From assembly GCF_000260965.1 (NCBI RefSeq), contig NC_017856.1:1050001-1082000 (forward strand): DNA of 32,000 nt, written 5' to 3'. The notes under the pieces were generated by a model. The model saw only the letters and a program-made list of their open reading frames with translations. It was not told the DNA's origin and made no database searches. Within the stretch, counting starts at the first letter, position 1. Every line of letters starts with the position of its first letter. Origin of the DNA: Methylophaga frappieri. GTDB taxonomy: Bacteria > Pseudomonadota > Gammaproteobacteria > Nitrosococcales > Methylophagaceae. The position numbers were made by a program, and so were the translations under genes. This document shows positions 3,921 through 26,357 of the stretch, piece after piece.

Positions 3921-4325
3921 TTATTGAAAACACCGCTTTTCTGCTTTTAAACGTTGCAGCATGGCTATTTGCTGACGCACATTTTCCATTCGCCTGACCT
4001 CATTTTCCGTCACCAAAGAGGAATAACCAAGGTAGCCTAATCCCAACCACGCTTTGAAAATAGGAATATTGTCAAAAATGATTAATCCCGTTGCGACCTT
4101 ATTACTGCTATCACTGTAAAAATCGGGTTTATAAGAGTATTGGAACGGATGCAGCGCGTTGATGGCTGCGTCTAGTTCATAACAATCAAATTGTTGATGC
4201 GCCGGTTTCGCTTTCACAATGGGCGGTTCGGCATAAATCGGTTCGGTTGGTACCGGCAGCATGGTCATTGCCTGTACCGAGGGGAGTCCCCAAAAAAGCA
4301 TAATCACGCCAGACCAAAGTCGCAT
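3921..4325 (-). CDS. Hypothetical secreted protein (134 aa)
   Basis: AAGGAGA lies 6 nt before the ATG. The N-terminal signal peptide is MRLWSGVIMLFWGLPSVQA. I recognise no family. Confidence 0.55.
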   Translation of the reverse strand: MRLWSGVIMLFWGLPSVQAMTMLPVPTEPIYAEPPIVKAKPAHQQFDCYELDAAINALHPFQYSYKPDFYSDSSNKVATGLIIFDNIPIFKAWLGLGYLGYSSLVTENEVRRMENVRQQIAMLQRLKAEKRCFQ

Positions 4326-4469
4326 GCGCGCTCTCCTTTAAACAGCCTTATCTCGATTTAACGTCACGGCGAAGGATTTCTTAAGGTTTTTGTGTAAAAT
4401 TCAGACAGAGTAAAGCCACGCATTCATCACGACGGATATTGTTGATGTCAGCCTCACGGAATAACGCTT

Positions 4470-11661: not shown

Positions 11662-14600
11662 CCCTTAAGCTGCCTATGCGGCAGTGAACTAACGGGCAAC
11701 GTATCGACCTGATATGCTGATTTTCTAAGCTGCCTGTGCGGCAGTGAACAGCATTTCTTTTTCTTGCTGTAGCTGCTTAATTTTCTAAGCTGCCTGTGCG
11801 GCAGTGAACGTTTCAAGAATGACAAACTTTGGTCGCCGGAATTTCTAAGCTGCCTGTGCGGCAGTGAACCAATATTGATCGGCCAATGATCGCCCTTCGT
11901 ATTTCTAAGCTGCCTGTGCGGCAGTGAACTGATACAGACTGGCTTTTTTCCGAGGGTCGCTTTTCTAAGCTGCCTGTGCGGCAGTGAACAACACAGTGTT
12001 CAGGGATGTGGTTGATCGCTATTTCTAAGCTGCCTGTGCGGCAGTGAACACCCCATCAGGTGGAACCTGACAGGGCTAAATTTTCTAAGCTGCCTGTGCG
12101 GCAGTGAACCATACTGCGAGACATTAAAAACACGGTGTTCATTTCTAAGCTGCCTGTGCGGCAGTGAACCGAGAGGGGCTTTCGCTCCTCTCTTTTTTTC
12201 ATTTCTAAGCTGCCTGTGCGGCAGTGAACCGAAGCCAAGCTGTTCAAGATGGTGACGTGTTTTTCTAAGCTGCCTGTGCGGCAGTGAACAATCTGGCGTT
12301 TTTCACAGCGATGGCCAGTGTTTTCTAAGCTGCCTGTGCGGCAGTGAACTGCAAAGATTAACATCATTCATGTTTAACATTTTTCTAAGCTGCCTGTGCG
12401 GCAGTGAACGTTGCCCTGATGGGCCTTTACCGCATTCGGCTTTTCTAAGCTGCCTGTGCGGCAGTGAACTAGTTCACCTTTCTCTGATGCCGCTGGATGC
12501 ATTTCTAAGCTGCCTGTGCGGCAGTGAACTTTCCTCTGAAAAATACCATTTACCTTTTTCTTTTCTAAGCTGCCTGTGCGGCAGTGAACTTCGTGCATTG
12601 CCAGGGTTTGAGGAAGACTTATTTCTAAGCTGCCTGTGCGGCAGTGAACCCGCGTTCCTCGGTGTTCATTAACCCATCACCTTTCTAAGCTGCCTGTGCG
12701 GCAGTGAACCAGAGATTGGGTCAGTGCAAATCGATTCAGGGTTTCTAAGCTGCCTGTGCGGCAGTGAACCGGTCAGTCAGCCGAGAAATCAGCGTCCTTA
12801 TTTTCTAAGCTGCCTGTGCGGCAGTGAACAGGGGATTGATTTTCGCGTTCGTGTGCTTGGTTTTCTAAGCTGCCTGTGCGGCAGTGAACAGGGGATTGAT
12901 TTTCGCGTTCGTGTGCTTGGTTTTCTAAGCTGCCTGTGCGGCAGTGAACGGGTTTGTTATTCATCATCAAAGCGTGATGGCTTTCTAAGCTGCCTGTGCG
13001 GCAGTGAACATGAGCAAGGGTAGCGGCAGAAGGCCGCAGCATTTCTAAGCTGCCTGTGCGGCAGTGAACACAGCCAATTATCGACATAACAGGCAGATGA
13101 TTTTCTAAGCTGCCTGTGCGGCAGTGAACAACGGCCTTGGTGCCAGTGGACTGAGATGTAATTTCTAAGCTGCCTGTGCGGCAGTGAACACAGCCAATTA
13201 TCGACATAACAGGCAGATGATTTTCTAAGCTGCCTGTGCGGCAGTGAACAACGGCCTTGGTGCCAGTGGACTGAGATGTAATTTCTAAGCTGCCTGTGCG
13301 GCAGTGAACGGGCTGCGGTCTTTGGCGTTGTCATCTTGACTTTTCTAAGCTGCCTGTGCGGCAGTGAACTTCCTTGCCGTTCAGATCCATGTCGCTGCAG
13401 CTTTCTAAGCTGCCTGTGCGGCAGTGAACGGAGTAACAGCAAAGAAACTCACGGGGGGGTATTTCTAAGCTGCCTGTGCGGCAGTGAACTGCAAATCCTG
13501 AAAACCATCGCCGACGATTGTTTTCTAAGCTGCCTGTGCGGCAGTGAACCATTGATTATCACAGCATAAGGACAATTTCATTTTCTAAGCTGCCTGTGCG
13601 GCAGTGAACCGTTTAGTGTTCGGATGGATAACTGACTGACTTTTCTAAGCTGCCTGTGCGGCAGTGAACTGCTGATGCTCGCGCTGGGCAGTGGGCTGAT
13701 ATTTCTAAGCTGCCTGTGCGGCAGTGAACACCGGCGGGGTGATTGCTGCCGGGTCTTATGATTTCTAAGCTGCCTGTGCGGCAGTGAACCGTTACGGTTC
13801 AGTCCGGTTCACCCGTATCACTTTCTAAGCTGCCTGTGCGGCAGTGAACGTACCGGACGCCAAGGAAGTCGAGGTCGATAATTTCTAAGCTGCCTGTGCG
13901 GCAGTGAACCTTAAAGGCTCTTACAACGAAGGATTTCACAATTTCTAAGCTGCCTGTGCGGCAGTGAACGGCAGAATCCCGACAACATGCAGACGCGACC
14001 ATTTCTAAGCTGCCTGTGCGGCAGTGAACTGGCGTGCCAGCTCAGCTGAGGTGCTGCGACATTTCTAAGCTGCCTGTGCGGCAGTGAACCCAGTAACAGC
14101 GCAGTATGGTTGCAAATAGACTTTCTAAGCTGCCTGTGCGGCAGTGAACGTCCTTCAGACAAAATTCGCGCTCGGCTTTGCTTTCTAAGCTGCCTGTGCG
14201 GCAGTGAACACAAGGTATTCCTGAGTTAATTAACGGTGTATTTTCTAAGCTGCCTGTGCGGCAGTGAACACTAAACAGCAGCTTGACCAATTATTTATAC
14301 TTTTCTAAGCTGCCTGTGCGGCAGTGAACGACGCGATTGAGGATGACACGGAACGGTTACTTTTCTAAGCTGCCTGTGCGGCAGTGAACGTTGTCATGGA
14401 TAGTTTTTATGTTGGCAGTTTTTTCTAAGCTGCCTGTGCGGCAGTGAACGAGTGTTTTCATTGCTGCCCCTCTGGTTTGTTTTTCTAAGCTGCCTGTGCG
14501 GCAGTGAACTCTCTCTGAGGATGATATTGAGATACTGATTATTTCTAAGCTGCCTGTGCGGCAGTGAACGCTAATGGAACCCATCAATAAGTTTCTTCAA

Positions 14601-15770
14601 TTTTCTAAGCTGCCTGTGCGGCAGTGAACTTATCAATAGTCGTTCCGGAGCTAGCGGATTATTTCTAAGCTGCCTGTGCGGCAGTGAACGTCACCCGCGC
14701 GCAAGAAGGCACCACTGCGCTTTTCTAAGCTGCCTGTGCGGCAGTGAACGCTAAAGCACGGCCAGCAGAAAACGCTGCGCTTTTCTAAGCTGCCTGTGCG
14801 GCAGTGAACATCATATGAAGTTGAAACCCGGACACGAAGCATTTCTAAGCTGCCTGTGCGGCAGTGAACGACTGGCTTGATTCGTTTCTTTTCGACGCTG
14901 ATTTCTAAGCTGCCTGTGCGGCAGTGAACCTCCACGTTTAATTGCCCCGTCAGCGGCTTAATTTCTAAGCTGCCTGTGCGGCAGTGAACGCGATGGCCTC
15001 AGCCGCCGGGCGAATTTGGTTTTTCTAAGCTGCCTGTGCGGCAGTGAACTGATGTTAAACCCGAAACAGTAAAAAAATGGTTTTCTAAGCTGCCTGTGCG
15101 GCAGTGAACAAAGTTAAGCTTCACGTTTCTGGTCACATTGAATTTCTAAGCTGCCTGTGCGGCAGTGAACCTGTTGTCAGATGGCAGTGGTATACAAGAT
15201 CATTTCTAAGCTGCCTGTGCGGCAGTGAACCAGCCTGTCTCTGGGGGCGCGGCGATGGACTGTTTCTAAGCTGCCTGTGCGGCAGTGAACTGTTTTTCGA
15301 ACTCAATGATTTGTTGTGACATTTTCTAAGCTGCCTGTGCGGCAGTGAACTATATTATGTTAAATAATAATTGTGAACATGATTTCTAAGCTGCCTGTGC
15401 GGCAGTGAACTTGTTGTGCGTAATTGCCGACGCCACCAGAGTTTTCTAAGCTGCCTGTGCGGCAGTGAACTTTCAGCAACGCGGAGCGGTTCACTTTCAC
15501 ATTTTCTAAGCTGCCTGTGCGGCAGTGAACATATTGGCAGAGGGTTTGTTGATAGGCTGATTTTTCTAAGCTGCCTGTGCGGCAGTGAACTACGCCCGGC
15601 TCGTTGAACTGGCCGTTGTCGATTTCTAAGCTGCCTGTGCGGCAGTGAACGTCTGGATAGTCTGAGCATAAATCTTGTTGTGTTTCTAAGCTGCCTGTGC
15701 GGCAGTGAACCTGACCTGTGAGAGAAAGAAGTTCAGCGTATTTTTCTAAGCTGCCTGTGCGGCAGTGAAC
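11662..15770 (-). CRISPR. Type I-F CRISPR array with 69 repeats and 68 spacers (65 unique)
   Basis: The 28-bp repeat TTTCTAAGCTGCCTGTGCGGCAGTGAAC (plus strand) is the reverse complement of GTTCACTGCCGCACAGGCAGCTTAGAAA, the canonical I-F repeat with the Cas6f hairpin CTGCCGCACAGGCAG. The period is a strict 60 bp: 67 spacers of 32 nt and one of 33 nt at 15110-15142. Sixty-eight repeats are identical. The repeat at 11662-11689 has 5 mismatches and marks the trailer end. The AT-rich leader and the cas genes lie at the high-coordinate end, so transcription is on the minus strand. Confidence 0.98.
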
Positions 15771-18881: not shown

Positions 18882-20143
18882 CTCAACACCTCCTTGTTGT
18901 CTTCTATAAACTCTTTAATGTAATGGTGCTCGGCCTCACCCAGCATAACGGGATGCTTAATACTGTTTTTGTAGCTGCTGACAATCCATCGAGCAATCTG
19001 GTCACAGAGGGTGTTCAGCCAGTCATCCTCTTGCAGCCGTTGCTCTTTATGTTGTTCGCATAGCCAGAGTTTTTGCCATGCCCGTAACTTGCTGGTTTCT
19101 GGCCAATACTGTTGAGTTGAGACGTCTCTCAACGCCATCATTTTCTGCAGGATCACATCCAATATATCCCCAAGGCAGCGATCCCTGCCCTTGCGAATTT
19201 TCTCTAATGGAATTTGGCCGTCACGCTCGATTTTGAAGACCTTATCGAGCCGCTCCAGAATGTCTTTGCAGTCGTAATAGCGCAGGCTTTGGATAAAGAA
19301 ATCTCTGGCGGGGAATCTGACATCTCGCTGTTCCAACAGCGGCGGTACAGATAAAAGCAGGTGGGCTTTGCCGCCGTTCTGGTTATTCAGAACACTGACA
19401 TTCTGGGGTTTAGTACCGCCATAACCGATAGTGGTTATATCGTAGATTTCGCTATAGCCCGACTCGGAATAGGTATTATTGCGCCGTAGCTCCCGTCCTT
19501 CCTTAACAGCATCCGAAAACCGTAACGCATCAATGCGCCTACGCAGTTCGAAAATCATGCCTGAGTTGCTGAGTATGGATAGCTGGTGGTAATCCTTATC
19601 TGCTGGAAAATACACCTGCTTTATTTTTGAACTGGTCACAGGCGTATCGTCCGACCGAGCCATGGCCATAAATCCAGACTTTAGATTGGCATAGCTCTCG
19701 GATGGGGTATTTAACAATGTTTTACCCAACTCCGAGTCTTGCTCTATATGCTCTATGACTGTACTGCCATCTTCTGTTACCAGTGAAAGAAACTTATGTA
19801 CATCCAAAGCAGCGGCGTTACCTAACGCATCTGCTTGAACATCGACATTTCCTGTACGCAAATAGCCATCAGGTTCCCTTGATGATTTTGCTATAACGGA
19901 CGTGGCATAGCCGTTTTTGTTCTTTCGTGAGCTGGGATGGCTGAAAGTACAAGGGTGAGTTGATATAGATATTTGACCTGCACGTTTAGCCGCATTCGGG
20001 AGCCATTTTTCAAGAGAGAACTCCTCTTCGCACTCCAGTTCTATCTCCCTTTTTTTCTCATTGGTCATATCTGGCTTAAGTTTCTTTTTGAGCCAACCTT
20101 CTTTGCGTTCAGCAAAAAAAGCATCAATCGCCGGGTCAAGCAT
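18878..20143 (-). CDS. cas8f: Csy complex large subunit Cas8f (Csy1)
   Basis: It is about 421 aa and is the first csy gene after cas2-3. I prefer the ATG at 20143, which is preceded by AGGAGA 6 nt upstream, over the GTG at 20149. It overlaps the cas2-3 stop by 8 nt. Confidence 0.85.
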   Translation of the reverse strand: MLDPAIDAFFAERKEGWLKKKLKPDMTNEKKREIELECEEEFSLEKWLPNAAKRAGQISISTHPCTFSHPSSRKNKNGYATSVIAKSSREPDGYLRTGNVDVQADALGNAAALDVHKFLSLVTEDGSTVIEHIEQDSELGKTLLNTPSESYANLKSGFMAMARSDDTPVTSSKIKQVYFPADKDYHQLSILSNSGMIFELRRRIDALRFSDAVKEGRELRRNNTYSESGYSEIYDITTIGYGGTKPQNVSVLNNQNGGKAHLLLSVPPLLEQRDVRFPARDFFIQSLRYYDCKDILERLDKVFKIERDGQIPLEKIRKGRDRCLGDILDVILQKMMALRDVSTQQYWPETSKLRAWQKLWLCEQHKEQRLQEDDWLNTLCDQIARWIVSSYKNSIKHPVMLGEAEHHYIKEFIEDNKEVLR

Positions 20144-23100
20144 GGTCACTCTCCTGTTCGTATAAACCTAACTGGTCGTTGTATTCATATGCCTTTCTGG
20201 TGCTTTCTGAGTAAACATCCAGGCTGATTTCGCCGTAGCGTGTTGCAACCTGATCCAAAGGTTCTTCGCGCATTTCGCTTTGTATTCGCAATAGCTGGAG
20301 GTAATCGCGCTGGAGCCAAAGCCGTGCTGTCTGCACCTTTGTTAACTCTGTGGTGGTGATTTGATAGACAATGTCATGACGAGCAAACTCACCAGTGTTG
20401 AGGCGGCTAAATTCACCTTTGGCATCGCGCTCGGTAAACCAGGCGTCACCGCCGCCATTTGTAACACGGTAAAGCTGAACGCTTTTTGTACTTTGTCGAA
20501 AACGCTTAAGAACTTGCGGTAATGCGGTGAGATACCAGTACCACTGAATATAGCCTTGCAGGGTTTCCGGCCCTTTACCCTCGTAATCGGTCAGTTGGCT
20601 CTCTATGACCGCATGTTCCAACAAGGCCATGGGGGTTTTACTGTTTTTTTGCCTTTCCTGGATTCTTGGTGTGGCATCTAGTCGAGTGCCGATCAGCTTC
20701 TCATCCACGGCTGTGAAAATATCATGGCTCTCCATGGCACCATGTCTTTTTGTTCCATCTGCTTTTAGTTTTGGTAAATTACCATCCACTTCATAACCTG
20801 GCTTACAAAAGCGCGGTTCTCTTGGTTTATCTCCGTATTTAAGCGTTCGCCAATTATATTGAAGGATACCGATATTGGGATGTTCTACCTCACCATCGCG
20901 GTGCCGTTTGACCCGCCCTGCTAACTGAATAATGGAGCGATAGGAGGAGGGTTCGATCACAGCCCAGTCGAAATCGTGGTCACGCCCTACTTCCTCAACA
21001 GGTGTGGCAACCAGAATAAATAACAGATTTTTTACTTGGGGCTGCTCATTGGCAATGCCGTCCAGATGACTTCGAACCTGCTCATTGTTAAAGGCCTGGG
21101 GTTGTTCGCCCGGTTGTTCTTTGCGCTTTAATACGCCATCAAGATGCTTTTCCTGTTCGTGACGTAGTAACAATACCTGCCTGCTGTGATACGCCATGAC
21201 TCGCACTTCAGTATCTTCAGGCCAGTTATATTCCAACAAAAAACGGGTAAGTTGCACGCAGGGTTGGATATTGGCAATCCGCACCACCCCAAAAGAAACC
21301 TTTAAGCCGGTTTTTACATCCACACTGTGGTGGTGTGCGTGCCTTTCCAGGGTCTCGGGCGCTATACGATTAAACCAGGCCTCTTTTTTACGGGTGGTAT
21401 CCGACTCAGCATTGCTTTGCATGGCTTGCGAGCAATCCACCACAATGGCTTTGCGCTTCGCCGCTTGTTTGCCTAACGCTTGTACTCGCTTTTCAATATA
21501 TCCGTCATGGATGTGACGATAATCCTCAGCAGCCTGGTCTTGGTTACCGATCTCTTCAACCTGTGTTGAAAACTCATCTATCCAGGCACAGCCCACCACC
21601 GGACTGGCGTTACGGGTTTTACAATAGAGCAGCCAGCCTTGCTGGTAAGCATGGAAATAGCCTTCTGCCATTGCCGGGGGAATAGTCGCCGAGGAAATCA
21701 TCACCTTACGCCCCAGCATTCCCGCCAGATGGATCAGACGACCAATGGCAATTAAGTCACTGCCGGTGAAGTCATCAACTTCATCGATTACTAAATCCGA
21801 AGACAACAAGCGCAATGCGGGCAAAATGTAGCGTCCGCCCCGTATGGTTTCCGTTGCGGCAATGATGTGGTCGATAGTGCAAGCCAAAACCGGCGCGTAA
21901 AGTAACTGCCTGTCTTTACTGCTCTGTAAAACCGTGGTTAAGCCTTCTTCGGGCAGCTCACCTTGATAAACAACTTCGTCAGAATTAGCTAACAGGGTTT
22001 CGACGGATTCTGATCCATATTTTTCCTGCTCTTGTACTTGTTCCTGTTTGTTTTGATTGTGCAAATCCGCAATCGCTTTAGAGCCAATCAATACTGCCAG
22101 ATCGCTTCCATCACTGTTCTTGAATATACGCTCACGGTATTCATCGCCAGTTTGTAAAGTAAGATTGCGAAGCCCCAGCGCGAGGGTATAGCGCAAGCTG
22201 TCGCCGTCATCGGAAAGCGCCATCATAACTTTGGCATTAGCAAAGGTTTTGCCACAGCCCGTGCTGGCCATATTTACGGCAAAAAAACCTTTGCGTGTGT
22301 CACCACATGCTTTACGCCAGTCGCGCACTTTTTTGGCAGCTGTATTTTGCCAAGCGTAGGAGGTTGGGCTTTTACGTTTTAATTCTGCCGTATTAAAGCT
22401 AGGCTCCAGGCCATTTTCGATAAGCTGTAACTTCCCGACAATTTTTTTGGCACTCTCGTAAACGCCCACCAAGTGCTGATCCAAAGCCTGCTTGGGCGAT
22501 TTGTCTTTTTGGGTATTGGCAATCAAGCCGGTGGTATTAGGCCAATTAGGCGTCTGGCCAATTTCAAGGGATGAAAAATAGTGGTCGCCTAACATCAAAG
22601 ACAAGCGAGCATGGTGGAGTAGTACGCGATAGCTACCATTCTCTACGGCCTGAGAAATAGTATCTTGTGACTCCAGCAATTTGCCCGACCAGCGCTTGAT
22701 TTGCGACAGCCATTTGCTGGAATTAGATAACAGCCCAGCAGGGAATTCTAAGCAGGACGCGAGATCATCTACACCACTATTCTCATAGCCCCAGCTTTTA
22801 TCGATCATGTCAAACATGCCTTCAAGACTCGTACACGGACTGCCTTTAGGTGCTTTTTTATCATCCAGAAAAGGAAGTCGATGATGAGTAACGATCAACC
22901 AAGCCACTAATTTAGCGACACTCGGCAAATCGGCTAATGGTCTTTCACAACTTTCACGCAGAGATGCCTTGAGGATATCCTCATCAATCTTTCCGTCTTT
23001 TAATGTTACTAACCATTCCTCGTCCTTATTGGGGTTGTTTGTGTTGGCAATAAGTGCCTTGAGCAATAAGCACGACACCCATTCGTGACGTAGCCTGTCT

Positions 23101-23534
23101 GCGCCTTTACCTTTATAATGTTTTCCAAGTTTTTGCTGGAAACGAGCACTGGCTTTACCCCAGTCGTGAAGTAATGCGGCGAAACAAGTCAATGATCTAA
23201 TAACGGGAAGGAACTGCCAGTCTTGTATATCGTCCCGGTAAAGCTGATTGGTCGATGTACTATTCACCGGTACAATGCCTCTCTGATTAAATTTGTTTTT
23301 ATTTCCCACCACCCAAACCAACTCCGACCTTGAGCGGCTCCGTATCCAGTGGCAACTCACGGCGGTATTTTTACTGGCAGTTTTTCGCAGTAGTTTTTTA
23401 ACGGCCAACAAACCTTCCTGAGTAATCACTGTCTGCCAAGTGTTATCCCCAATACGATCGGCAAAAGCATCCAGCACTCGCCTAGTTCGGGCATGTGCTT
23501 TTTTCTCGCATTGGGAAACGAAGGTGACCATCAT
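20136..23534 (-). CDS. cas2-3: Cas2-Cas3 fusion nuclease/helicase (type I-F signature protein)
   Basis: The N-terminal Cas2 part MMVTFVSQCEKKAHARTRRVLDAFADR..TWQT.IT parallels PA14 Cas2/3 (LVSQCEKRALSETRRILDQFAER). It carries an HD motif (ALLHDWGKAS), helicase Walker A (ASTGCGKT) and a DExD box (VIDEVDD). The length is about 1132 aa. I prefer the ATG at 23534 (AGGGA 10 nt upstream) over the GTG at 23543. Confidence 0.95.
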   Translation of the reverse strand: MMVTFVSQCEKKAHARTRRVLDAFADRIGDNTWQTVITQEGLLAVKKLLRKTASKNTAVSCHWIRSRSRSELVWVVGNKNKFNQRGIVPVNSTSTNQLYRDDIQDWQFLPVIRSLTCFAALLHDWGKASARFQQKLGKHYKGKGADRLRHEWVSCLLLKALIANTNNPNKDEEWLVTLKDGKIDEDILKASLRESCERPLADLPSVAKLVAWLIVTHHRLPFLDDKKAPKGSPCTSLEGMFDMIDKSWGYENSGVDDLASCLEFPAGLLSNSSKWLSQIKRWSGKLLESQDTISQAVENGSYRVLLHHARLSLMLGDHYFSSLEIGQTPNWPNTTGLIANTQKDKSPKQALDQHLVGVYESAKKIVGKLQLIENGLEPSFNTAELKRKSPTSYAWQNTAAKKVRDWRKACGDTRKGFFAVNMASTGCGKTFANAKVMMALSDDGDSLRYTLALGLRNLTLQTGDEYRERIFKNSDGSDLAVLIGSKAIADLHNQNKQEQVQEQEKYGSESVETLLANSDEVVYQGELPEEGLTTVLQSSKDRQLLYAPVLACTIDHIIAATETIRGGRYILPALRLLSSDLVIDEVDDFTGSDLIAIGRLIHLAGMLGRKVMISSATIPPAMAEGYFHAYQQGWLLYCKTRNASPVVGCAWIDEFSTQVEEIGNQDQAAEDYRHIHDGYIEKRVQALGKQAAKRKAIVVDCSQAMQSNAESDTTRKKEAWFNRIAPETLERHAHHHSVDVKTGLKVSFGVVRIANIQPCVQLTRFLLEYNWPEDTEVRVMAYHSRQVLLLRHEQEKHLDGVLKRKEQPGEQPQAFNNEQVRSHLDGIANEQPQVKNLLFILVATPVEEVGRDHDFDWAVIEPSSYRSIIQLAGRVKRHRDGEVEHPNIGILQYNWRTLKYGDKPREPRFCKPGYEVDGNLPKLKADGTKRHGAMESHDIFTAVDEKLIGTRLDATPRIQERQKNSKTPMALLEHAVIESQLTDYEGKGPETLQGYIQWYWYLTALPQVLKRFRQSTKSVQLYRVTNGGGDAWFTERDAKGEFSRLNTGEFARHDIVYQITTTELTKVQTARLWLQRDYLQLLRIQSEMREEPLDQVATRYGEISLDVYSESTRKAYEYNDQLGLYEQESDHA

Positions 23535-23730
23535 TGTAGGCACATCCCTATGTTTTTAAGTTAGAATCGGGCTGTTGTCGCGCCAACGATTCAACAGCCG
23601 TCATCTTCATGACTACAGCAACTTACAATGTTCTGCATCCAAAGGCTCAGCGAGTGGCACCGACTTACGAGTGCGGTGCTTCTGCTTTACTCTTGAAAAG
23701 CAGCTTACTCTAGTTTTCATTACACAACAA

Positions 23731-23749
23731 CCTATAAAAAGTTTGTTTA
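23731..23749 (+). promoter_or_regulatory. Candidate Csy-complex operator: CC PAM plus a 17-nt partial protospacer matching the adjacent mini-array pseudo-spacer
   Basis: CC (23731-23732) is followed by TATAAAAAGTTTGTTTA (23733-23749). This equals pseudo-spacer positions 1-17 (TATAAGAAGTTTGTTTA) except at position 6. It overlaps a possible plus-strand -35 element (TTGTTT, 23743-23748), which is followed after 18 nt by TATTGT (23767-23772). Confidence 0.5.
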
Positions 23750-23774
23750 ATAAATATTAATTCTGTTATTGTAT

Positions 23775-23850
23775 GAATACTGCCGCACAGGCAGCTTAGA
23801 AATATAAGAAGTTTGTTTATATATTCACTGCCGCACAGGCAGAGCCTCTA
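23775..23850 (+). CRISPR. Mini-CRISPR / crRNA-like gene: two degenerate I-F repeats flanking a 20-nt pseudo-spacer, antisense to the cas operon
   Basis: Unit A at 23775-23802 is gaatACTGCCGCACAGGCAGCTTAGAAA (25/28 to the array repeat). Unit B at 23823-23850 is aTTCACTGCCGCACAGGCAGagcctcta (19/20 over the first 20 nt, with the last 8 nt unrelated). The pseudo-spacer at 23803-23822 is TATAAGAAGTTTGTTTATAT. The orientation is opposite to the main array. Confidence 0.7.
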
Positions 23851-24826
23851 TGGAGGGACAAGGAACGCCCCTCTTTTCCCAATCATCTTTCAATGCCACA
23901 CTTTTGACCTGTTCAAACATAAATTCCAAGGCGTTATGATCGGTAAAGGCTTGTAAACATTGCTGACGAAACTCTTGTTCTGTGCTTTTTTCTTTCGCAC
24001 AGATAAATGCCCAAGGCAAAATCAATGCATCTTTCACCAAATCAGCAATATCAAATACCAACGCGCCACGCCGGGTTTTACCATGCATAACAGCAAAGCC
24101 GTGTGGAATGCCCAACACCCATAGCGTTGTTGCAGCCAAGCCATAGGCCAGGTAATTACCATGATTGAGAAATATATTAGCCAGATCTGCGGCTTCGCGT
24201 TCACGGGTAAAATCACTGTAGCCAGTTATGCGAACAGCAAATTTATAGAGTTGCTTTGTCAGCTCCGCTTCGGCCTGTAAAAGTTTCCCAACATTATTCG
24301 CGATATTGATTTTCTTTAAGCTGTTTTCGAGTGCAGTTTGTAATGTGGGATCGGTAATACTGAAACCTTCCGTTTTCAAATCTCGATCTTTTTTCCATGC
24401 CTGCTGTAGAAATTTAATCCTTTGCTGTTGAAACGCCCTTGCTGCTTCAAGGCGTTTTTCTTCTTCAAACCAGAATTGCATCCATCCTTGGATGTACTCT
24501 GTTGGTCGGTATTCACTTTGAGGAGAAAGCCACTCAATTTCATTTGCCATCAACAATGGCGTGCCCCCACCACCACAAAAACCGACCAACACGCCCGCCG
24601 ATGCCAGCATTCTCATTGCTGCCTGAGTAATTGAAGTGCCCGTACCTAGTAGCAAACACGTTGTATTGGCGATGGGAATATTCCAATACTGATTTTGATT
24701 TTTCTCTTCGGTGAGATAAAGCACTCGACCATCTTTTTGCATGATCCGGCATTTTTCCAAATAATAAATATTGGCTCGTTTGGAGTGTAAAATCGCTTTT
24801 AAATCGGTTAATGCTTCCATCATCAT
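23825..24826 (-). CDS. cas1: CRISPR integrase Cas1 (type I-F)
   Basis: LKAILHSKRANIYYLEKCRI parallels the I-F Cas1 N-terminus (LKTILHSKRANLYYLQHCRV). It is about 333 aa and lies directly upstream of cas2-3. The start is ambiguous: three consecutive ATGs at 24826/24823/24820, and a TTG at 24844 in the ORF track. The last five codons (LPVRQ) and the stop are encoded by mini-array unit B. Confidence 0.92.
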   Translation of the reverse strand: MMMEALTDLKAILHSKRANIYYLEKCRIMQKDGRVLYLTEEKNQNQYWNIPIANTTCLLLGTGTSITQAAMRMLASAGVLVGFCGGGGTPLLMANEIEWLSPQSEYRPTEYIQGWMQFWFEEEKRLEAARAFQQQRIKFLQQAWKKDRDLKTEGFSITDPTLQTALENSLKKINIANNVGKLLQAEAELTKQLYKFAVRITGYSDFTREREAADLANIFLNHGNYLAYGLAATTLWVLGIPHGFAVMHGKTRRGALVFDIADLVKDALILPWAFICAKEKSTEQEFRQQCLQAFTDHNALEFMFEQVKSVALKDDWEKRGVPCPSIEALPVRQ

Positions 24827-24859
24827 TCCAATATAGATATGCAAAACATCTCTATTCGC

Positions 24860-25233: not shown

Positions 25234-26196
25234 TTAACGATAATTTTTCTGCATTTTTTGTATTTCCTGAGCAATGTCTTCGCGAAGATCCGCTGGGGAC
25301 AACACTTCCACCTCGCTACCAAAGTGGAGGATATCTCGTATCAGTTCTCGGTTATCGCTGTAGGGAATGGAGAGCAGGTAGTTGCCCTCTGCGGTCCAGT
25401 CAGCCTGTTGATCGGGATGCCAGTTTTCCCGGCTGACGCGTTTGGAGATGGGTTTGGAAAACCTGAGTGTTGCGATATCTTTGACTTTGCCTGCAAAAAT
25501 GCCGTAACCCGGCATAACATGGTTATCCAGTGTTGAGAATGGAATATCTATCGCTTGGTTTTTCAGGCGTTGTATCTGCTGGATATTATCGAGTAAAAAA
25601 GTGCGCAATGCGTCACGTTTGTGGCACCAGGCATCCAGATACCAGTTGTCCCGATAATAAACGAGTCGTTGCGGGCTGATTATTCGGGTGTCTATCTGAT
25701 CAGTTTGCCATTGCCAGTAGCTGATTTGCAGCTGCTTTCGGGTTAATAGTGAAAAGGCAATTTCAGTAAAAAATGTCGGTTCGCATTGTCTTTGCCACTG
25801 GCTGGTTACTTTGATTCTGTTTTGCCAGTCCTGATCGTTAATGCTTTGTTTGTGCAAACGCGCCTGTAAGCGCTGTGTCACGGGATGCAGTAATTCTTTG
25901 ACAAGCGGTGGTTGCAGGCTTTGACTTATCTGTTCCAGCAGTGCCAATGACACCATTTCTTTGTCGGTAAACCATAAGCCGGGCAGTTCGAAGGTTTCCC
26001 CTGATTTCAGGTCGTAGTAATAGCCCCGACCGCGTTTGTTTTTGATGGGGGCACCAAGATAGTCGCACATATGGGTACGAATTCGGTGAAACGTGTTTTT
26101 GCCGTAGCCAAAATGGTTGAGGATGTCATTAAGCGGAACCGGGTAACGATGCTTTTTAAAATAATTATCCAGCTCGTAAATATGGGAAAACTCCAT
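25234..26196 (-). CDS. WYL-domain transcriptional regulator (wHTH-WYL-WCX; YafY/BrxR/CapW-like)
   Basis: An N-terminal HTH region is followed by the LPGLWFTDKEMVSLA linker motif, the WYL core (LVYYRDNWYLDAWCHKRDALRTFLLDNI) and a C-terminal extension domain. I prefer the ATG at 26196 (GAGG 8 nt upstream) over the ORF-track start at 26247. Confidence 0.82.
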   Translation of the reverse strand: MEFSHIYELDNYFKKHRYPVPLNDILNHFGYGKNTFHRIRTHMCDYLGAPIKNKRGRGYYYDLKSGETFELPGLWFTDKEMVSLALLEQISQSLQPPLVKELLHPVTQRLQARLHKQSINDQDWQNRIKVTSQWQRQCEPTFFTEIAFSLLTRKQLQISYWQWQTDQIDTRIISPQRLVYYRDNWYLDAWCHKRDALRTFLLDNIQQIQRLKNQAIDIPFSTLDNHVMPGYGIFAGKVKDIATLRFSKPISKRVSRENWHPDQQADWTAEGNYLLSIPYSDNRELIRDILHFGSEVEVLSPADLREDIAQEIQKMQKNYR

Positions 26197-26357
26197 TTCC
26201 GCTACCTCGCCAGGTTTTGATTTAAGGCAAGATACCATGTGACACACTGTTGGTATAGCAATCGGCTATGCCGCAACTAATTCGCACTAAAGTTGAAGCT
26301 GATAGGCAATTTCTGTAGATTTAGAAGTGTGCAATTTAATTTTGAGAAAGCTATCTA

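Follow-up and report, generated by a model that had tools for sequence, protein, structure and literature searches.

Why does a complete type I-F1 CRISPR-Cas locus carry, in the gap between cas1 and cas2-3, a miniature array on the strand opposite to its own genes? The locus lies on the minus strand of a 32-kb stretch of the Methylophaga frappieri chromosome, which we call the window and which is the whole stretch of DNA that was analysed. Its cas genes were confirmed with Pfam and run in the order cas1, a 281-bp gap, cas2-3, csy1-4 and an array of 69 repeats. The mini-array consists of two repeat-derived units that enclose a 20-nt pseudo-spacer. Very probably its product is a short guide RNA by which the CRISPR effector is directed to a promoter in its own locus, and the reading best supported by the sequence is that it is a putative gene for a CRISPR RNA (crRNA)-like regulatory RNA of the CreR/CreA class. 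As to what is regulated, we lean slightly towards autoregulation, in which the guide RNA would make Csy repress the promoter that drives cas2-3 and csy1-4.

A mini-array with a self-target

The mini-array and its target comprise the following features.

23775-23802, plus strand: first repeat-like unit (unit A, psiR1), GAATACTGCCGCACAGGCAGCTTAGAAA, in which the Cas6f hairpin (CTGCC-GCACA-GGCAG) is intact, as is the 5' handle of 8 nt, CTTAGAAA
23803-23822, plus strand: 20-nt pseudo-spacer (psiS), TATAAGAAGTTTGTTTATAT, read from the sequence
23823-23850, plus strand: second repeat-like unit (unit B, psiR2), ATTCACTGCCGCACAGGCAGAGCCTCTA, with the 3' handle and hairpin part retained
23795-23842, plus strand: predicted mature crRNA-like RNA of 48 nt, CUUAGAAA + 20 nt + AUUCACUGCCGCACAGGCAG, deduced from the Cas6f cleavage rule and the sequenced CreA of Acinetobacter sp. 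WCHA45 (PMC10097628)
23731-23752, plus strand: CC protospacer-adjacent motif (PAM; 23731-23732) and a 20-nt target that matches psiS at positions 1-5 and 7-17 and mismatches it at 6 and 18-20

Both units resemble the repeat of the main array (GTTCACTGCCGCACAGGCAGCTTAGAAA; 69 repeats with a 60-nt repeat period at 11670-15765, minus strand). The hairpin core CTGCCGCACAGGCAG has 69 minus-strand copies in that array, and its only plus-strand copies are at 23780 and 23828, in the mini-array, 8 kb away and on the strand opposite to the array and the cas genes. A preliminary description of this DNA had placed the units, the spacer and the target exactly to the base, and direct reading confirmed that psiR1 differs from the array repeat at nucleotides 2-4 only and keeps the hairpin and the 5' handle. 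For psiR2, it was right that the eight terminal nucleotides are scrambled (seven of the eight are altered); the first 20 nucleotides, which it described as kept, are retained except for nucleotide 1. The Cas6f hairpins of both units are identical to the hairpin of the array repeat and both appear in the predicted fold, and the Rfam family CRISPR-DR4 matches both units on the plus strand (34.2 and 20.5 bits). Thus, as the same description stated, repeat decay is restricted to parts that are dispensable for a mature RNA, namely the first nucleotides of psiR1 and the last eight of psiR2. An ordinary array or array remnant was considered and rejected: the pseudo-spacer is 20 nt long in a system with a 60-nt repeat period and a canonical array-spacer length of 32 nt, and a PAM-flanked self-target lies 70 bp away.

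The self-target (23733-23749, TATAAAAAGTTTGTTTA) is identical to psiS positions 1-17 save position 6, and lies behind a CC PAM, 70 bp upstream on the same strand. This agrees with what had been noticed before, and we found in addition that the site is unique. The PAM-plus-17 site occurs once in the window, where 0.07 matches would be expected by chance at up to three mismatches, and the PAM-plus-seed pattern also gave a single match. The 32 kb that were searched, out of a 2.7-Mb genome, thus contain no second seed match for the guide. Absent from the preliminary description is the overlap of psiR2 with cas1: it takes in the final eight sense codons of that gene together with its stop codon (23825-23827), and the C-terminal extension of the window Cas1, ...EALPVRQ*, is the translation of psiR2 antisense.

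Spacer and target change together

We asked how this arrangement fares in related loci. A Cas1 scan of one genome per GTDB species gave 80 related I-F loci (at most 84% amino-acid identity), and a metagenome scan for I-F mini-arrays with 19-22-nt spacers was the source of L097, L087 and L112; L210 and L211/L212 were found as Csy1 relatives of L087. A cassette of the same type is present in eight further loci, and the architecture was read in nine including the window. It follows cas1, with the mini-array antisense to cas1, in L014, L002 and L016 (from the GTDB scan) and in L097 (from metagenomes), and it lies between cas2-3 and csy1 in L087, L112, L210 and L212. L014 is an uncultured gammaproteobacterium that can be aligned with the window over the entire gap, L002 is Amphritea atlantica, and L016 is a metagenome-assembled genome of the Kangiellaceae with more degenerate repeats. 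The cassettes of L087 and L112, at the other junction, are homologous to that of the window. Overall, the metagenome scan gave one extra case at the cas1 site (L097) and many at the known cas2-3/csy1 site. The pseudo-spacers include the following.

L014: TATAAAGAGTCGTTTTACAC
L002: TAATAAAACCAACCTTAATGT
L016: TGTATATAGTTTCTTTACATTTT
L097: TATGTATATAATGCTTTAAT
L087: ATGTAGTACTGTGTTTATAT

Every pseudo-spacer matches its own CC-flanked site, which is on the same strand and 67-92 nt upstream of that spacer. We compared each spacer with each locus in a cross-matrix of seven loci (the window and six of the eight), scoring the 15 pairing-competent positions. Cognate pairs scored 13-15 of 15, close relatives 12-14 and unrelated combinations 7-11, and shuffled spacers reached at most 12. 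The spacers of the window and L087 have positions 13-20 in common (GTTTATAT); their seeds differ, each together with its own target. Mismatches between guide and target favour positions 6, 12 and 18, and validated I-F CreA RNAs are likewise mismatched at these positions (PMC10097628; bioRxiv 10.64898/2026.06.02.729485; PMC10120712). The preliminary description had named independent drift, or absence, of the units and their match in homologous loci as the outcome that would count against a CreR/CreA-like guide; the opposite was seen, with the CC retained, which supports its proposal.

Of 76 related loci, about 55 have no gap at this junction, the stop codon of cas1 touching or overlapping the start of cas2-3. 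The nearest relatives of the window Cas1 (87-88% identity), M. nitratireducenticrescens among them, show the same arrangement, with an overlap of 4 nt between the two genes, which marks the 281-bp gap as an insertion. The occurrence of the cassette among close relatives is sporadic.

Two putative promoters at the target

The target lies where two putative promoters meet, all promoter assignments being consensus matches only.

23743-23772, plus strand: putative mini-array promoter, -35 TTGTTT (23743-23748), 18-nt spacer, -10 TATTGT (23767-23772)
23702-23730, minus strand: putative cas-direction promoter, -35 TTGTTG (23730-23725) abutting the PAM, 17-nt spacer, -10 TAAGCT (23707-23702)

The -35 of the putative mini-array promoter is within the target, and its -10 is 7 nt ahead of the psiR1 hairpin. 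A -10-like hexamer ends 7-8 nt ahead of this hairpin in all five cas1-site loci (TATTGT, TATACT, TATGAT, TATAAT and TATAAT). With this spacing transcription would start at the base of the hairpin, which would explain why only the first nucleotides of psiR1 have decayed.

On the other side, eight of the nine loci have a -35-like TTGNNN at a distance of 0-2 nt from the PAM complement, read in the cas direction, and a TAnnnT -10 a further 17 nt on (16 in L002). The cas-direction hexamers are as follows; those of L016, L210, L212 and L014 are good.

L016: TTGACA-17-TATTTT
L210: TTGACA-17-TAGTAT
L212: TTGACT-17-TATTAT
L014: TTGAAA-17-TAATAT
L087: TTGAAT-17-TATCAT
L097: TTGATC-17-TAAACT
L002: TTGCAT-16-TAATCT
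Window: TTGTTG-17-TAAGCT, weak

A scan of the window found no terminator-like site on the minus strand between 23544 and 23730. The end of the cassette carries a Shine-Dalgarno (SD)-like UAGGGAU, which is common to the window and L210.

A conserved structured RNA downstream of the putative promoter

Between the putative regulated promoter and the next cas gene, we identified a conserved RNA structure, which we call R1.

23555-23682, minus strand: R1, structured RNA of about 128 nt with three main stem-loops, ending ...GAUUCUAAC, defined by a covariance model

Comparison of the window with L014 revealed 7 compensatory pairs in the R1 region. A covariance model trained on the window (23555-23682, minus strand), L014 and L087 matched L112, L210, L211 and L212, none of which was in the training set, at 80-81.5 bits (E about 1e-16). 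It scored neither in some 90 further I-F loci nor in any of 56 viral contigs that an R1 sequence pattern had picked out. Across six distinct R1 sequences, 96% of the cells are paired and 15 pairs have changed on both sides; when the 3' partners were slid by 1-3 columns as a control, only 37-56% of the cells could pair. G-U pairs are frequent, which assigns the structure to the transcript that runs in the cas direction. Like the anatomy of the mini-array, its uniqueness in the window, the conserved architecture and the spacer-target covariation, this covarying RNA structure was established from the sequences.

Only 15-35 nt separate the end of R1 from the next start codon, which is that of cas2-3 in the window and L014 and that of csy1 in L087, L112, L210 and L212. 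No terminator follows it, so in each of the six distinct sequences, which represent seven loci, the cas mRNA would carry R1 as its 5' part. Rfam has no family that matches R1 at E values up to 10, and the intergenic region gave only CRISPR-DR4. No SD-led open reading frame (ORF) is conserved across the window, L014, L087, L112, L210 and L212, and indels shift every candidate frame. Two ORFs were considered as genes and rejected. The 35-amino-acid ORF at 23613-23720 has no SD, starts upstream of the predicted -10 and is disrupted by frame-shifting indels in L014; the 20-amino-acid ORF at 23548-23610 has no SD and is not conserved in L014, again through frame-shifting indels. Helix 1 of R1 was rejected as core structure, being not positionally conserved between the two cassette groups and overlapping the predicted -10 with its 5' arm in L087. 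Binding of CsrA/RsmA through GGA motifs of R1 was dropped, the second GGA not being conserved in the window. L016 has a shorter leader at the R1 position.

A predicted autorepression circuit

From close experimental precedents we infer a series of transcription, processing, binding, repression and feedback. The mini-array would be transcribed on the plus strand from its putative promoter, which has the -10 at 7 nt from the psiR1 hairpin. Cas6f would cut after both hairpins to give a 48-nt RNA with a normal 8-nt 5' handle, the 20-nt guide and a 20-nt 3' handle; this RNA would enter a shortened Csy complex, which would bind the CC-flanked site at 23731-23752. Because the guide is short and the PAM-distal end is unpaired, the complex should sit on the DNA without licensing Cas2-3 cleavage.

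In type I CRISPR interference (CRISPRi) of transcription, pairing with the non-template strand also blocks elongation. The PAM at our target abuts the minus-strand -35 and the guide would pair with the non-template strand in the cas direction, and binding should therefore block both initiation and read-through from cas1. The repressed transcript would consist of the structured leader of about 128 nt (R1), cas2-3 and csy1-4. When free Csy falls, titrated by the 69-spacer array or inhibited by anti-CRISPR proteins, the operon would be derepressed, which would amount to negative feedback. The PAM-distal half of the target overlaps the predicted mini-array -35, so the guide may limit its own synthesis too.

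Probable autoregulation or a possible CRISPR-guarded toxin

Our slight preference for autoregulation draws on the lack of a terminator, the SD-like motif with which the cassette provides the cas gene behind it, and the fact that R1 is not built like the known CreT RNAs, with their SD, start codon and hairpin. Several observations weigh on the other side. The window cas-direction promoter matches the consensus at only 6 of 12 positions and a promoter scan did not call a promoter there. Transcription of cas1 runs towards the mini-array and could disturb it. R1 is conserved although the downstream gene differs (cas2-3 in the window; csy1 in L087, L112, L210 and L212). The sister cassettes L002 and L097 hold an SD-led small ORF in the place of R1, and the cas1/cas2-3 junction of relatives often carries toxin-like cargo (ParE, PIN, Fic, KilA-N, Bro-N).

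These observations bear on the strongest alternative, a CreTA addiction module, which we regard as a serious contender of rather low probability. Here the mini-array RNA would be the antitoxin CreA and R1 (23555-23682, minus strand) a CRISPR-repressed toxin; loss or inhibition of Csy would derepress R1 and stop growth, and cas2-3 and csy would be affected, if at all, secondarily or in addition. R1, the mini-array and the promoter move as one cassette into two cas junctions, and the 15 covarying pairs indicate selection on the structure. Retention of R1 in front of different genes is unexpected of a passive 5' untranslated region and suggests that it has a function of its own, possibly as a toxin. 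The sporadic presence of the cassette among close relatives is as expected of selfish or accessory modules, and both the small SD-led ORF at the R1 position of L002 and L097 and the ParE, PIN, Fic/RhuM, KilA-N and Bro-N genes at the same junction in relatives fit a guarded cargo. Moreover, every I-F mini-array dissected by the Li laboratory guards a toxin just downstream of the target (PMC10097628; 10.1101/2024.01.05.574328; 10.64898/2026.06.02.729485), and a P. aeruginosa element that was at first interpreted as autoregulating Cascade (PMC10120712) seems to belong to the CreTA1 type described later (10.64898/2026.06.02.729485). Against a toxin, R1 lacks what the known CreT RNAs share, namely an SD with a start codon or mini-ORF and a hairpin beside it; it does have hairpins, in an arrangement unlike that of any known CreT. 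The conserved AUG in its UGGAUG has no SD, its frames are shifted by indels between close relatives, and the lack of a terminator makes R1 the 5' part of the cas mRNA. Autoregulation and a CreT-like role of R1 are not mutually exclusive; both can hold.

The small ORF of the sister cassettes (L002, about 4190-4340; L097, 834-1001 in the cas direction) has a strong SD and encodes products of 49 and 55 amino acids. The two proteins are homologous (...LSI(Q/E)E(K/R)xQ(V/I)xxLxxKIIDL...; pairwise E 3e-7). We found no Pfam or PADLOC family for them, and no relative in 1.8 billion representatives except a spurious tandem-repeat translation, P0122. This ORF is a candidate for a CRISPR-repressed small protein toxin or accessory protein.

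The presence of a homologous cassette at two junctions suggests a portable 'self-repressed promoter' module. It is possible, although we consider it doubtful, that the cassette is a mobile three-part unit composed of a crRNA-like guide gene, a Csy-repressed bidirectional promoter and R1, which plugs into different type I-F junctions and in which R1 represents a new class of CRISPR-guarded RNA. If so, R1 could be a toxin that does without the SD and mini-ORF logic of known CreT RNAs, or a cis leader that couples the availability of the effector to the translation or stability of cas mRNA.

Other explanations

It is also conceivable, if improbable, that the crRNA-like RNA is functional and has its main job elsewhere, either in repressing, through the same seed, a host or mobile-element gene outside the window or in soaking up free Csy as a decoy. 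The match close by would then do no more than let the mini-array promoter limit itself. The overlap of the target with the predicted mini-array -35 makes autoregulation of the guide plausible, Shmakov et al. note that extra distant targets are possible (PMC10120712), and our site search took in one 32-kb part of the genome. However, in eight of the nine loci the cas-direction -35 abuts the PAM side of the target, a geometry that a trans target does not need, and the window holds no second seed match.

We think it very unlikely that the element is a non-functional relic, that is, a decayed two-repeat array fragment next to a chance 17-nt local duplication. Short two-copy repeats are often due to chance, the region is AT-rich, and the window cas-direction promoter is weak by consensus; this explanation nevertheless conflicts with the spacer-target covariation across nine loci, none of which has lost the CC PAM or departs from the common strand and geometry, with the confinement of decay to repeat parts that the mature RNA does not need, and with a unique match for which the chance expectation is 0.07. 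Least probable of all is that the hairpins act antisense, without any guide RNA, as a 3' end or insulator that stabilizes or terminates the cas1 mRNA: psiR2 lies at or over the cas1 stop in all cas1-site loci, and the strong hairpin after psiR2 in L002, L097 and L016 could serve both convergent transcripts, but the covarying PAM-flanked target, the exact 5' handle in psiR1 and the plus-strand -10 placed 7-8 nt before psiR1 would all be left unexplained.

Relation to known crRNA-like regulators

Self-targeting mini-CRISPRs, which serve effector self-regulation or toxin guarding, are a recent concept (2021-2026). The class is known; what is new here is the cas1/cas2-3 position and the structured RNA R1 of about 128 nt. 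We found no description of the M. frappieri element, of a cas1/cas2-3 cassette or of the R1 RNA in the searchable literature. In type I-F systems, crRNA-like guides are placed 'almost always' between cas2-3 and csy1 (10.64898/2026.06.02.729485; PMC10097628; 10.1101/2024.01.05.574328).

The closest counterpart is CreA1/CreT1 of P. aeruginosa, including strain YL84, whose mini-array represses the Cascade promoter (PMC10120712). CreA1 has a 20-nt pseudo-spacer and a target upstream of the -35, and achieves more than 90% repression (10.64898/2026.06.02.729485). Similar to this system (10.64898/2026.06.02.729485; PMC10120712), the window element is of type I-F and has two degenerate repeats, the psiR1 5' handle, both Cas6f hairpins, a 20-nt pseudo-spacer, a 48-nt mature RNA (predicted in the window), a CC PAM and tolerated mismatches at positions 6 and 12. 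The target likewise lies upstream of the -35 of a promoter, putative in the window, directed towards the cas effector genes, and the element is sporadic among near-identical cas operons. Unlike CreA1/CreT1, which lies at cas2-3/csy1, the window element is at cas1/cas2-3, so that the nuclease-helicase gene is also downstream of the promoter. In addition, the PAM directly abuts the -35 in the window, compared with a distance of about 30 bp in P. aeruginosa, psiR2 overlaps the upstream coding sequence, and what lies downstream is R1, a structured RNA of 128 nt that has neither an SD nor a proline mini-ORF.

In the I-F system of Acinetobacter sp. WCHA45, CreA has a 20-nt pseudo-spacer, and repression depends on Csy and Cas6f and is independent of Cas1 and Cas3 (PMC10097628). 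The window element resembles WCHA45 CreTA in the 20-nt pseudo-spacer with 17 of 20 positions paired, in a regulated gene divergent from creA, and in the 8-nt 5' and 20-nt 3' handles, which were confirmed by small-RNA sequencing in WCHA45 and are predicted in the window (PMC10097628). It differs in location (the cas3-csy1 intergenic region in WCHA45) and in its target, which is upstream of or adjacent to the -35 and not downstream of the creT transcription start. WCHA45 CreT consists of an SD and an 11-codon mini-ORF whose AUG is enclosed in a hairpin, all of which is missing from R1.

Autorepression by CreR is sensitive to crRNA load and anti-CRISPR proteins, and H. hispanica CreA represses both creT and cas (10.1101/2023.03.10.532045). 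Similar to the CreR elements of types I-B, I-E and V-A described in that study, the window element is a degenerate mini-CRISPR whose guide partly matches a putative effector-cas promoter, it has no recognizable toxin gene, and its predicted autorepression would sense crRNA load and anti-CRISPRs. The experimental CreR of the study are not of type I-F, and the window element differs from CreR in being placed inside the operon, between adaptation and interference genes, with a conserved structured leader. The A. baylyi ADP1 CrePA module (10.1101/2024.01.05.574328) also has an I-F CreA that guards cargo between cas genes, where L002 and L097 have protein-coding cargo. However, CreP is a 103-amino-acid KilAC-domain protein and its pseudo-spacer is 30 nt, whereas the window has no protein cargo and the L002/L097 ORF has no detectable family.

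Phage Cracr/Racr RNAs are likewise repeat-derived with short pseudo-spacers (17-21 nt), and load into Csy (10.1101/2024.10.29.618823; PMC10651486); they belong to mobile elements and work against the host, whereas the window element is chromosomal, inside the cas operon, and has a target in cis. Searches of viral contigs found no copy of the guide or of R1. A search of viral contigs for a phage mimic of the guide (TTAGAAATATAANAAGTT) gave 30 matches, none with an I-F hairpin, which suggests chance matches in AT-rich DNA. The short-spacer mini-array pattern occurred in only two viral contigs, neither related to the window guide. Among plasmids, all that the cassette retrieved was an ordinary I-F array, on a plasmid of Acinetobacter lwoffii.

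Insertion at cas1/cas2-3 would bring the Cas2-3 nuclease gene and the whole csy operon under guide control. R1 is a concrete candidate for a toxin under CRISPR guard or for a leader element of cas genes, new in either case, and the compact design, with a 48-nt guide and a PAM abutting the -35, could be reused in CRISPRi-type feedback circuits.

Genomic context and variants

The genes that border the cassette are as follows.

23825-24844, minus strand: cas1 ORF (Pfam)
23825-24820, minus strand: annotated form of cas1, 331 amino acids in M. frappieri, with the C-terminal extension antisense to psiR2
20136-23543, minus strand: cas2-3 ORF (Pfam), the first gene downstream of the cassette
20136-23534, minus strand: cas2-3 with its probable start, ATG 23534 or 23531, preceded by UAGGGAU

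In the window csy1 overlaps the end of cas2-3, and the genes flanking the locus encode a PQQ dehydrogenase, GGDEF/EAL proteins and RNase R. These neighbours are in keeping with the species, to which the window Cas1 also points through its 100% identity to a protein cluster that bears the name M. frappieri. A gene for a WYL/WCX-domain regulator is located directly upstream of cas1 (25234-26247, minus strand) and is also found in the cassette-free relatives L148 and L149. cas1 may have its own promoter, perhaps regulated by the WYL protein, and may thus stay under WYL control while cas2-3 and csy1-4 become guide-controlled.

The upstream ORF runs through psiR2 antisense and stops at a TGA inside ...CAGTGAAC in the window (23825-23890, minus strand), L014 (3975-4011) and L087 (5162-5200), such that the peptide LPVRQ* ends Cas1 in the window and L014 and Cas2-3 in L087 alike. 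In L002, L097, L016, L210 and L212, the stop of the upstream gene lies just before psiR2. A strong GC-rich hairpin follows straight after psiR2, in the guide direction, in L002 (3955-3980), L097 (365-395) and L016 (about 4000-4035), between the convergent cas1 and mini-array transcripts. With folding energies of -24 to -28 kcal/mol and z-scores of -3.6 to -5, it is likely a bidirectional terminator. The remnant of this hairpin in the window is weak (GGAGGG...CCCCTC, 23852-23874).

A 15-nt inverted repeat with 87% complementarity flanks the cassette in the window (23510-23524 and 23869-23883), placing it in the loop. The arms are the conserved 3' end of cas1 (GATTGGGA, encoding DWE) and the 5' end of cas2-3 (TCCCAAT, encoding SQ). 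In cassette-free loci such as L001 and L006 they are about 40 nt apart and could form a hairpin over the ribosome-binding site and start codon of cas2-3.

About one-quarter of the related I-F loci have inserted cargo at the cas1/cas2-3 junction; gaps with cargo were seen in L004, L007, L022, L023, L026, L050, L053, L056, L060, L061, L062 and L066. The cargo comprises KilA-N, RhuM with Fic/DOC, Bro-N, a PIN (VapC-like) pair, a ParE toxin with an RHH-like partner, and DUF4172-Fic. The repeat consensus that we used detected no repeat-like unit beside this cargo.

Short-spacer (19-22-nt) I-F mini-arrays are common in the environmental contigs L081-L114 (for example, L085, L092, L094, L096, L098, L099, L106 and L107). 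Those with cas context are mostly at the cas2-3/csy1 junction and have CC-flanked targets mismatched mainly at positions 6, 12 and 18. L090 and L107 have two tandem candidate targets each. L093, L095, L104 and L114 are cas-free contigs with similar AT-rich pseudo-spacers and may be mobile-element copies.

A variant at the cas1/cas2-3 junction was found in L072, in which the mini-array (4300-4400) is co-directional with the cas genes and directly upstream of cas2-3. Its 21-nt spacer, ACTAAGTTTTCGAAATTGCTA, matches a CC-flanked target at 14 of 15 positions near 4115, about 220 bp upstream on the opposite strand and near a TTGAAT -35, and a 47-amino-acid hydrophobic ORF lies between the mini-array and the target. 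In this co-directional layout, the guide would sit on the very transcript that it regulates.

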